Part shown: positions 39,108 to 41,771 of the stretch, piece by piece
Layout of the letters: every line of letters begins with the position of its first letter
Numbering within the stretch: the first letter of the stretch is position 1
Source of the DNA: Myxococcota bacterium
Lineage (GTDB): Bacteria; Myxococcota_A; UBA9160; UBA6930
Assembly: GCA_965223705.1 (NCBI GenBank)
Contig: OZ245015.1
Coordinates: 608,001 to 672,000, forward strand
Direction of reading: 5' to 3'
DNA length: 64,000 bases
Made by a program: the position numbers and the translations under genes
Notes under the pieces: generated by a model
Databases searched by the model: none
What the model was told of the DNA's origin: nothing
The model's input: only the letters and a program-made list of their open reading frames with translations

Positions 39108-39434
39108 ATGCGACGAATCGGAAGCAACATCCGCAAGCAAAATACGGACGACAAATCGAAGCGGATCGTCCGGAACATCATTCAGTACACGGACACAGAG
39201 CAGCCGCGGAACGAGTATCCGAAGAAGATCGTTTCCCCCACGCAGCCCGGGTCCTGCTGTAAGGAAGAAAACCGGGTCATGGTCGGTTCCGTCAAGGAGA
39301 TCGAGGGATTCAAGTTCTGTTACAAGATCTGTGAAACCTGCGGTCACGCGGTGAAGTACTACTTCCCTGCCGTCGAAGGCACGAGTACGTCGGTCAAGTC
39401 CTACCGAAAGTGGAAGCGCTACATGGTCCAGTAG
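39108..39434 (+). CDS. Small basic Cys-containing hypothetical protein (possible zinc ribbon)
   Basis: GAGGAGG RBS; CC...CxxC pattern; strong C/G third-position bias. Confidence 0.8.
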   Translation: MRRIGSNIRKQNTDDKSKRIVRNIIQYTDTEQPRNEYPKKIVSPTQPGSCCKEENRVMVGSVKEIEGFKFCYKICETCGHAVKYYFPAVEGTSTSVKSYRKWKRYMVQ

Positions 39435-39447
39435 CGCGCGCCGCGTC

Positions 39448-40824
39448 GTGAGAGATCTCGCGGAAGCAGCGCGCTACCTAGAAGGCCTCATCAACATCGA
39501 GCGTCGCCCTCGGGAGCCGACGCATCGAATGAACCTCGACGCGATCGACTACCTGCTCGAGCGGGTCGGCCACCCCGAGCGCCGCTACGACGTGCTCCAT
39601 ATCGCCGGCTCCAAGGGGAAGGGCAGTACGGCGCTGTTCGCCGAGGCGCTCCTCTCCGGGCCGGGTCGCCGCGTCGGCACCTTCACGTCTCCCCACCTGA
39701 CGAGCTGGACCGAGCGTTTTCGTATCGATCGAAAGCCCGTCGATCCGCCGCTGCTCGTCGACGAGCTCCGCCGCATCGCGCCCCATGTCGATCGGGCGAG
39801 GGCGACCGACGAGATCCGGCCGAGCTTCTTCGACGTTACGACGGCCCTGGCCTTCGCGATCTTTTCGAGAGTCGGCGTGACTACGGCGATCGTCGAGGTC
39901 GGGCTCGGCGGCCGCCTCGACTCGACGAACATCGTTCGCCCGCGCGTTGCGTGCATCACGAGCATCGAACTCGAGCACACGGATCGCTTGGGAAACACGC
40001 TGGCTGCGATCGCTGGTGAGAAAGCGGGCATCATCAAGCCCGGCGTTCCGGTCGTCGTCGGCGACCTTGCCGAAGAGGCGCTCCGCGTTGTGGAAGCGCG
40101 CGCCGAGGTCTGCGGCGCGAGGCCGCTCCTCTGGGGGAGAGATTTCGGGGTGCGCCGACTCGAAACCAATGCTCGTGGCGTGCGCGCCGAGTTGTTCCAT
40201 GGCAACTGCGCCGTTCTGTTTGAGGCGCCCCTTCTCGGTAGCCACAACGCGCACAACGCCGCGCTGGCGCTCACGGCAACGCGGATCCTCGGAGCGAAGA
40301 TCGACCCCGTCGAGGCGGCTTCGCGGCTGGCTGGCGTGGAGCTTCCGGGTCGGCTCGAGCTTCGCGACGGAGATCCCCTGGCGATCATCGATTCGGCACA
40401 CACCGAGGTTTCCTTTTCCGCACTTGCCGAAACACTCGAGCTCTTTCCCGGGCGGCCCCGGGATTTCGTGTTCTCTCTGTCCGAAGGGAAGCGACCCTCA
40501 CTCCTCGGAAGTTTGTTGCGCGGGGCGCGTCGGGTGACGCTGACACGGGCCGATCCCGATCGTTCGATCGATGTCGACCTCCTCGCGCGCGCCGTGCGCG
40601 ACGCGGGCTACCGGGGCCAGCTTTCAAGCCAGGAGGATCCCGAGCTCGCGGTTCGTTCGGCGCTTGACGAGGCGCCGGCGGGGGGCCTGTTGTGTATCGC
40701 GGGGTCCGTCTACCTCGCGGGAATCGCCCGGCGGATTCTCGATCGCGGGACGGCTGGCCGGTCGGCGACACCAAAGCAAAGCGCCCGGGTAGGCTCCTCG
40801 CACAATGTGCGAGGGGAGGGGTAG
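39448..40824 (+). CDS. folC: Folylpolyglutamate synthase/dihydrofolate synthase
   Basis: HIAGSKGKGST, FTSPHL..ER, EVGLGGRLDSTN, EKAGIIK, PGRLE, DSAH, GSVYLAG. Confidence 0.94.
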   Translation: MRDLAEAARYLEGLINIERRPREPTHRMNLDAIDYLLERVGHPERRYDVLHIAGSKGKGSTALFAEALLSGPGRRVGTFTSPHLTSWTERFRIDRKPVDPPLLVDELRRIAPHVDRARATDEIRPSFFDVTTALAFAIFSRVGVTTAIVEVGLGGRLDSTNIVRPRVACITSIELEHTDRLGNTLAAIAGEKAGIIKPGVPVVVGDLAEEALRVVEARAEVCGARPLLWGRDFGVRRLETNARGVRAELFHGNCAVLFEAPLLGSHNAHNAALALTATRILGAKIDPVEAASRLAGVELPGRLELRDGDPLAIIDSAHTEVSFSALAETLELFPGRPRDFVFSLSEGKRPSLLGSLLRGARRVTLTRADPDRSIDVDLLARAVRDAGYRGQLSSQEDPELAVRSALDEAPAGGLLCIAGSVYLAGIARRILDRGTAGRSATPKQSARVGSSHNVRGEG

Positions 40825-40856
40825 CCTGGCCCGGGCGCAGAGGACGTTTCCGTCAC
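40773..40856 (-). ncRNA. Candidate sigma54-dependent small RNA (~84 nt)
   Basis: Consensus sigma54 promoter, GAAA-tetraloop hairpin, long bulged hairpin and U-rich tail; no plausible ORF. Confidence 0.6.
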
Positions 40857-40866
40857 GGCCGTTTAT

Positions 40867-40883
40867 CGCAAGCAGCGTGCCAG
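40867..40883 (-). promoter_or_regulatory. Sigma54 (-24/-12) promoter
   Basis: CTGGCACG-CTGC-TTGCG matches TGGCACG-N4-TTGC exactly. Confidence 0.85.
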
Positions 40884-40996
40884 TCAGCGATCTGCGCTTT
40901 GTGCGCGACAAGCGCAACAAACGAAGCAGCCTCGGATCTCCCTCCGGCGACGGACTCGCAACTCTGCAGCATTCGTCCGACCATCGGCGCACACGG

Positions 40997-41015
40997 GTGA
41001 CGCAAATTGTGTCGC
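40997..41015. promoter_or_regulatory. Imperfect palindrome, candidate enhancer-binding-protein site
   Basis: GTGACGCAAATTGTGTCGC, about 140-160 bp upstream of the predicted sigma54 start. Confidence 0.45.
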
Positions 41016-41096
41016 CGGGTCGCTGCGCTTCGCGTCAAATCGTCTCCCCCGTTCGCTGCGGGTCAGCGTCCGACCCGAAGTGGTTATACTCCGCCC

Positions 41097-41771
41097 GTGT
41101 CGCAAGCCTCTTCTCGGGCGTTCGAGATCGCCGTCTTTTGTGACTTCGACGGCACCTTCTCCGTGCAAGACGTGGGCTCGACCCTCGCGCGCATGCATCT
41201 CGGTGAGCGGCGGGCCGCGCTCTGGGAACGCCTCGTCGAGGGCGAGCTCGATCCGTGGGCCTACAACCAGGAACTGTTCAAGGACTTCGCGCTCCCCGAG
41301 TCGGAACTCGACGCGTTTCTCGCCACCGTCGATCCCGATCCGGGAGCTGCGGCGCTTTTCGCGTGGTGCGAGGGACGCGGCGTGCCGTTCAGGATCCTCT
41401 CCGACGGGTTCGACTACAACCTCGAACGTCTACGCGAGCGCTTAGGCATTCCGTTCGAGTTCGACGCGAACCACCTCCACTACAAGGCCGGTTGCTGGGT
41501 GATCTCGGCGGGGCACCCCGATCCCTCGTGCGGGTGCGGGACCGGAGTCTGCAAGCGTTCGCGCATCCGAGAGTTCGCCGATAAGCATCGAGGCGTGAAG
41601 ACGGTCCACATCGGCAACGGCCGGGTATCCGATTTGTGCGGCGCCGAAGCGGCGGACTACGCGTTCGCGAAAGACACGCTGGCCGAAGAACTCACTTCAC
41701 GCGGTCGAGCTTACCGACCGTTCACAACGCTGCACGACGTCGTGGCGGGTCTCGAAGCGCTCGTTCGGTAG
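41097..41771 (+). CDS. HAD-IB family phosphatase (MtnX-like)
   Basis: FCDFDGT, ILSDG, CGCGTGVCK, GNG..SD, FAK; TATACT 6 nt before GTG 41097. Confidence 0.87.
   Translation: MSQASSRAFEIAVFCDFDGTFSVQDVGSTLARMHLGERRAALWERLVEGELDPWAYNQELFKDFALPESELDAFLATVDPDPGAAALFAWCEGRGVPFRILSDGFDYNLERLRERLGIPFEFDANHLHYKAGCWVISAGHPDPSCGCGTGVCKRSRIREFADKHRGVKTVHIGNGRVSDLCGAEAADYAFAKDTLAEELTSRGRAYRPFTTLHDVVAGLEALVR

Follow-up and report, generated by a model that had tools for sequence, protein, structure and literature searches.

Examining a 64,000-nt stretch of genomic DNA (the window, in which all window positions are counted; G000 is the genome that holds it), we found that the minus strand beside a folC-like gene almost certainly carries a functional RNA gene, the representative of an apparently undescribed sRNA family. 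The element is a class-wide RNA gene and not a feature of folC. It is probably a stand-alone trans-acting sRNA that works through Shine-Dalgarno (SD) pairing; we infer from sequence both its transcription and a repressive effect on translation. An uncultured, widespread lineage thereby gains an outlined regulatory RNA whose predicted enhancer, promoter, structure, and seed are all backed by comparative data.

Each feature listed in the initial annotation is found in the sequence. Read along the minus strand, the locus opens with a palindromic upstream activating sequence (window 40997-41015, no strand assigned, consensus GTGACRCAAWTTGYGTCAC), to which a sigma54 enhancer-binding protein is predicted to bind, followed by a sigma54 -24/-12 promoter of exact consensus (TGGCACG-N4-TTGC, 40868-40882, minus strand) with a predicted +1 at 40856. 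The predicted sRNA of about 84 nt (40773-40856, minus), its ends set by promoter geometry, the hairpin, and the U-rich tail, comprises a small GNRA hairpin in the 5' leader (GACG-GAAA-CGTC, 40843-40854, minus), a rod hairpin (40781-40838, minus), and the U-rich tail TTTGCTTT (40773-40780, minus), which is T-rich after the stem and reads as a weak intrinsic terminator. The rod consists of an outer stem P1 of 15 pairs, a one-sided 8-nt bulge, an inner stem P2 of 8 pairs, and a variable loop. The bulge, ACCCCTCC = ACCCCUCC (40815-40822, minus), is predicted to be unpaired, includes the anti-SD motif CCUCC, and is the predicted seed. Neighboring genes are the convergent folC-like gene (39448-40824, plus, with Pfam Mur ligase domains) and a divergent HAD-family hydrolase gene (41097-41771, plus, Pfam HAD). 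Predicted homologues are 69 to 160 nt long, with a median of 88, and the folded stretch has a z-score of -4.39, none of 200 shuffles being equally stable. In each of two public DNA runs, which may include the source sample, a single contig spans the locus, and this argues against an assembly artefact. None of the sequencing runs listed for the locus is an RNA run.

The promoter is the sole exact sigma54 match in the 64-kb window. With one mismatch allowed, the window holds three matches where 1.14 would be expected; taken by itself, the motif is therefore little above chance, and its weight rests on conservation. Among 61 distinct pattern matches, 54 have a sigma54 promoter 19 to 56 nt upstream of the hairpin; the initial annotation had reported this consensus and its +1, and the loss of promoter conservation that it named as counting against an RNA gene is not seen. 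Of the remaining seven, four are chance matches lacking the hairpin, two are second copies in tandem, and one has a variant promoter. A sigma54 gene was detected in 38/41 genomes.

The palindrome that the same annotation had placed at enhancer distance is likewise a conserved feature. In the conserved arrangement it stands about 125 bp upstream, its distance from the -24 element being 133 bp in G000, and a 19-bp palindrome with at most four mismatches occurs 101 to 154 bp upstream of the promoter in 66/74 homologous loci versus 0.1 in shuffles. Because this consensus was derived from the 74 loci themselves, we tested it anew on metagenome loci, 80 out of at least 121, picked with a pattern free of the enhancer and of the 3' arm. 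Of these 80, 52 scored above 50 bits. The enhancer was present in 45/49 evaluable hairpin-positive loci versus 1/27 hairpin-negative loci, the single exception being a truncated member. Within G000 the site is unique (30.8 bits; the runner-up, at 15.3 bits, falls within a CDS) and is absent from the other 83 intergenic sigma54-like promoters, with genes called by an in-house script. IHF-like sites were found in 13/74 homologues versus 3.1 in shuffles; none was found at the G000 locus. These comparisons show that the predicted enhancer and promoter sites are conserved together with the hairpin and its bulge.

The long hairpin with a one-sided bulge, also proposed earlier, is supported by covariation in relatives. 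In a training alignment of 56 sequences, partly chosen with a pattern in which the bulge is fixed, 96.7% of cells are paired, two-sided change occurs at 9/23 pairs, and the RNAalifold fold is nearly identical to the modelled rod. Since the selecting pattern bears on this set, 21 model-found sequences outside the training set were counted separately: in this held-out alignment, which is fitted to the covariance model and hence biased towards it, 95.7% of cells are paired and two-sided change occurs at 18/23 pairs, including all eight pairs of P2. Although all P2 pairs covary, the CCCUCC of the bulge is unchanged in 21/21 held-out homologues. The bulge sequence is ACCCCUCC in 66/74 homologues, and its predicted mean unpaired probability over the 74 is 0.96 (above 0.8 in 68/74), so that the anti-SD motif appears exposed as the initial annotation had proposed. 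The alignments thus point to a seed that is fixed in sequence on stems that are fixed in pairing only. Five outer-stem pairs never vary in alignment A1, partly owing to the search pattern, and could reflect protein recognition.

Several features bear on strand and on the nature of the conserved object. G-U cells exceed A-C cells (81:16 and 44:6), which favors the minus strand as the RNA, and across the 74 loci the 8 nt that follow the stem contain a mean of 4.3 T, compared with 1.5 A for the 8 nt that precede it. The conservation would be of another kind if the hairpin were a DNA-level palindrome or protein-binding site giving rise to no functional RNA, a reading to which we assign hardly any probability: the changes are compensatory, the G-U excess is strand biased, and the elements keep a fixed order of enhancer, promoter, hairpin, and U tail in a single copy per genome. 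The 5' leaders vary freely in length and sequence among homologues; the GACG-GAAA-CGTC hairpin noted earlier is thus present in the window but incidental, as it is not conserved. In one family with long leaders (L094, L095, L103, and L110), a common word, GAGGAGCG, lies within a predicted hairpin. At least four loci carry tandem hairpins behind one promoter with the bulge kept (L099:1410-1566, L052:1498-1634, L067:1466-1593, and L532:348-493), and in the first copy at L099 the inner stem is rewritten while the bulge is identical.

The gene neighborhood varies around the element. In the 458-residue product of the folC-like gene, the last Pfam domain ends at residue 420, and the stop of the gene at 40824 gives a 52-nt antisense overlap with the predicted RNA in G000. 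The initial annotation was therefore right that the predicted RNA is antisense to a folC tail beyond the conserved end, and the overlap itself is incidental: it recurs in part at L018, and most homologues overlap no gene. The locus is syntenic across the class, with changes among the adjacent spacer genes. Downstream genes include folC, an MFS transporter, a GH20 hydrolase, and a lipA-like or patatin-like gene, in either orientation; in 77 loci the next gene behind the promoter lies on the opposite strand in 46, on the same strand in 26, and is unclear in 5. The initial annotation had noted that the promoter points at no protein gene, and across the loci no particular gene is found consistently behind the conserved promoter and enhancer. 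At most 11 of the 46 convergent ORF calls overlap the hairpin, and several of these are probably shadow frames. Because neighbors change from locus to locus, a folC-specific or leader role is ruled out. This variable neighborhood also largely refutes a cis element more generally, be it a folC terminator, an antisense RNA to folC, or the leader of a downstream gene. The folC tail overlaps in G000 and L018 and the 26 same-strand genes speak for such an element; the differing identity and orientation of the downstream gene, the few overlapping convergent calls, and the U-rich tail and G-U bias, which indicate the minus strand, leave it with a negligible probability.

On the upstream side, an ORF cluster is present in 18/20 loci, and all three members tested are S-methyl_trans proteins (homocysteine S-methyltransferase). 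This gene, which usually lies between the HAD gene and the enhancer, is missing from G000 (window 41015-41097), where the enhancer is retained. Beside folC, a 108-aa ORF (window 39108-39434, plus) without a Pfam match shows 60 to 72% identity across the order.

Mapping the element onto genomes, we found by BLAST that the region is matched in 30/40 relatives, with one match outside the hairpin and one weak. Scanning 185,579 species genomes with an exact pattern returned 58 loci, of which four are chance matches in other phyla, devoid of promoter and hairpin; the remainder are mostly titled Myxococcota or Deltaproteobacteria, and one is titled UBA9160, which is probably the class concerned. A covariance model (R1) built from the 56 sequences detected the RNA in 27/28 genomes of the class, a second order included, and found nothing convincing in 123 other genomes of the phylum, just two short hairpins that resemble terminators and lack the bulge. 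Divergent families escape the strict pattern, and deeper homologues may exist beyond the sampled phylum. Viral contigs gave no match to one strict pattern. With BLAST and model results combined, the RNA is present in 36/41 near relatives, and the five RNA-negative ones are assemblies of 2.1 to 2.8 Mb that are 75 to 91% complete. G000 has one copy, and the RNA is nearly always single-copy across the class; the two copies in G024 are identical, form an inverted duplication on a contig of short length, and were treated as an assembly artefact. Loss of the RNA is not tied to loss of sigma54, which the five small RNA-negative genomes retain. In the small-genome relatives G001, G002, G004, G007, and G016, sigma54 is kept and both the RNA and the pilus regulators are absent; four of these were counted for strong enhancer proteins and have two to four each, versus about 20 in G000.

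Searches for known families agree with the earlier description of the RNA as unannotated. Rfam at gathering and E-value thresholds gave nothing credible (best E-value, 0.041, on the opposite strand). The Pxr model RF01812 gave no match at the locus in five genomes, even with the threshold relaxed to E ≤ 10, and no match in 151 genomes in a phylum-wide run made without a positive control. No description of this RNA was found in the literature searched, including the available parts of PMC6211767, PMC8035640, and PMC7519303, within a body of work in which subscription papers are thinly covered and motif catalogues in supplements could hold it.

Sigma54-dependent sRNA genes are known as stand-alone units in Gammaproteobacteria, where GlmY, NrsZ, CrcZ, and Qrr are each driven by one enhancer-binding protein. 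The RNA described here differs from these four in having no Rfam match, another structure and seed, and no Hfq found in the five hosts tested. A closer parallel is myxobacterial Pxr (PMC5684412, PMC5568312), which likewise has a sigma54 promoter preceded by an enhancer region, a functional stretch that is unpaired and rich in C, a host lacking Hfq, and occasional tandem copies. These likenesses are what a deeply diverged Pxr homologue would display. However, RF01812 is silent at the locus, and the RNA comes from a different bacterial class; it forms one rod with a one-sided bulge, whereas Pxr forms three stem-loops with its C-run in the first loop, and it lies behind the homocysteine S-methyltransferase gene, or behind the divergent HAD gene in G000, with no NtrC-like gene upstream, whereas pxr directly follows pxrK/pxrR. 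Homology to Pxr is thus very improbable. The direct targets of Pxr are described as unknown (PMC11928866).

Other anti-SD RNAs offer functional parallels. According to PMC4615179, the cuckoo and alpha-r14 RNAs are repeatable modules that present an invariant unpaired anti-SD on compensatorily varying stems; the same combination is found here, and the tandem hairpins resemble repeated modules. They differ in host, being from Alphaproteobacteria, in motif (RCCCCUCC here versus CCUCCUCCC there, with CCUCC alone in common), and in placement, which is in two to four adjacent hairpin loops there and in the bulge of one long rod here. NfeR1 (PMC10746234) is an Hfq-independent anti-SD sRNA that blocks ribosome-binding sites, with an eight-nucleotide pairing at the ntrB start region; unlike the present RNA, with its sigma54 promoter and dedicated enhancer, it has LsrB as activator and NtrC as repressor. 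Campylobacter jejuni FlmE/CJnc230 (PMC11187230) is an RpoN-dependent anti-SD sRNA that represses translation in a surface-appendage cascade; it arises by processing of the flgE mRNA and its action is on flagella, whereas our RNA has a promoter of its own and a distribution that does not follow flagellin. By analogy, a cuckoo-type mode of action is most plausible for this RNA, in which the defining features of the cuckoo RNAs and of Pxr were not found. A rod with its seed in a bulge is unlike the loop-borne anti-SD RNAs described in the papers cited here and would be a minimal Hfq-free design.

In the mechanism that we propose, a sigma54 enhancer-binding protein would bind the conserved palindrome and switch on the conserved promoter, as is established for sigma54 promoters in general, and RNA polymerase would produce an RNA of about 70 to 160 nt ending after the rod hairpin. 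The rod, a structure backed by covariation, would serve as a stable scaffold that keeps the 8-nt bulge unpaired, and the bulge would pair with G-rich SD regions (GGAGGGG-like) of several mRNAs in competition with the 16S anti-SD. By analogy to NfeR1, the cuckoo RNAs, and FlmE, such pairing may lower translation without Hfq, which was found in 0/5 genomes tested, with control searches positive. The CCUCC of the bulge, invariant and unpaired, is complementary to the SD core and agrees with the 16S tail of G000, the match to the 16S end being limited to these five nucleotides.

Target prediction seeded on the bulge, a check put forward in the initial annotation, had a divided outcome: no strict 8-mer target emerged, and several pilus genes are enriched against soft controls. 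No single target keeps the full 8-nt seed match in strict searches, and the intersection of GGAGGGGY start sites between G000, G031, and part of G014 (17/111 matches), for ATG and GTG starts, is empty. Candidates from G000 were rejected: the best match, 12 nt at the start of an OmpA-family gene, has GGAGGG near the start in just three other loci of the 29 listed; a response-regulator/HTH gene retains its site in 0/3 orthologues; and a FliA-type sigma gene has an ordinary SD, with GGAGGGG in 1/29.

The absence of a strictly conserved mRNA target is also what would be seen if the bulge were a protein decoy, resembling the 16S rRNA tail with its CCUCC, or some other C-rich site, and titrating an RNA-binding protein, with tandem copies adding sites. 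An invariant bulge on a sequence-conserved stem and the tandem hairpins would fit this reading as well, and sigma54-driven protein sponges such as CrcZ provide a precedent. Known protein sponges, however, carry many binding sites and this RNA has a single one in most genomes, the bulge matches just CCUCC of the G000 16S end, and CsrA was found in 3/5 RNA-positive genomes and Hfq in 0/5. We therefore consider a decoy unlikely. A CsrB/Rsm-type sponge was rejected, as CsrA is patchy among RNA-positive genomes, and the RNA also differs from that type in having no conserved GGA loop. Still less probable is a sponge for another, G-rich-seeded sRNA: it would account for an invariant seed without a fixed mRNA target, and intergenic GGAGGGG sites distant from any start codon are numerous in G000, the one genome counted, but no conserved partner RNA was identified.

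Returning to SD pairing as the preferred reading, the circuit that we consider likeliest, and propose tentatively, is control of type IV pili, with an activator from the pilus cluster (PilR-like or a neighboring regulator); its candidate targets would be pilP, pilO, pilC, and an SgmX-like TPR gene. In its specific form, which we regard as doubtful, the RNA would be a post-transcriptional layer of the pilus cascade, the sole strong target of a pilus-cluster enhancer protein, whose Hfq-free bulged anti-SD throttles pilP, pilO, pilC, and the SgmX-like activator. In a bolder variant, the bulge would on its own mimic the 16S tail and damp G-rich ribosome-binding sites as an entire class. If the pilus link is true, RNA control would be added to type IV pilus assembly in myxobacterial relatives, an independent parallel to Pxr; if it is false, a solid new Rfam-type family would still stand.

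The SgmX-like gene is a long TPR gene beside pilMNOPQ. Its label and that of the PilR-like regulator are our assumptions, taken from domain content and position and not from direct comparison; a PDB search returned engineered TPR proteins only. The RNA is present in 26/26 genomes with the SgmX-like gene versus 3/8 without it (one further genome is outside the count), a co-loss with P = 2e-4 that is overstated by kinship and incompleteness and also confounded by genome reduction. Genome size alone is no explanation, since G206, at 5.9 Mb and 94% complete, has neither the RNA nor the TPR gene. G034 lacks the SgmX-like gene, the PilR-like regulator, and the enhancer, and has the most degenerate RNA of all. 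G013 keeps a perfect RNA in the absence of pilus genes; a damaged enhancer in this genome was considered and dropped, its score of 10.9 being the same as that of its congeners.

Evidence from target sites is suggestive only. At a seed-pairing threshold of -11.1 kcal/mol or better in the start region, the site is found in 11/17 orthologues of the SgmX-like gene, 13/21 of pilP, 11/21 of pilO, and 11/18 of pilC, compared with 21/172 and 12/125 control orthologues and with outgroup orthologues of pilO (2/30), pilP (7/23), and pilC (1/5); that is, 52 to 65% of class orthologues, which as kin are not independent, versus 10 to 12% of controls and 7 to 30% of outgroups. Outgroup pilP thus already reaches 30%, four additional outgroup pilO sites stand at -11.0, and 16% of strong-SD genes reach the same threshold. 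Other pilus genes scored 0/6 (pilA), 0/20 (pilM), 4/20 (pilN), and 3/18 (pilT). GAGGGG is found at the SgmX-like site in 8/31 across the whole class, and the true seed ties for first place with two of 56 permutations. The pilus cluster was picked after inspecting G000, and about 4% of the 29-gene windows of that genome score equally high. Near the cluster, an SPFH/Band 7 gene (L151:4136-4903; G000:C1:2639136-2639903) has a G-run ribosome-binding site in 11/15 orthologues; it may be a target outside the pilus system, or else an indication that the signal is unspecific.

Four regulators were profiled as candidate activators, and three of them are missing from all RNA-negative genomes. The FleQ-like regulator shows the best presence fit (34/36 RNA-positive, 0/5 RNA-negative); counting against it, the promoter beside it differs in the arrangement of sites, and G034, which has no enhancer, retains this regulator. 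The PilR-like regulator is present in 32/36 RNA-positive versus 0/5 RNA-negative genomes and the regulator beside pilM in 28 to 29 of 36 RNA-positive genomes, and the fourth candidate gave weak matches only. The same half-sites occur at other spacings in pilA and fliA promoters, so no one candidate is singled out. At pilA promoters (G000:C1:1112018-1112054 and L263) the motif is TGACRC-N3-GYGTCA, with the half-site of the sRNA enhancer and a spacer of 3 bp versus 5 bp.

A flagellar role for the RNA was rejected, flagellin being present in 11/41 genomes versus the RNA in 36/41. A FliA/WhiG-type sigma gene (L301:4831-5625 = G000:C1:2659831-2660625; L314-L343) follows the FleQ-like enhancer protein in 29/30 loci and sits behind a sigma54-like promoter, in a group where flagellin is confined to those 11 genomes. 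FliA-type promoter motifs face the pilM operon and its adjacent regulator in most of 17 loci. This arrangement suggests a flagellar-type sigma cascade running type IV pili.
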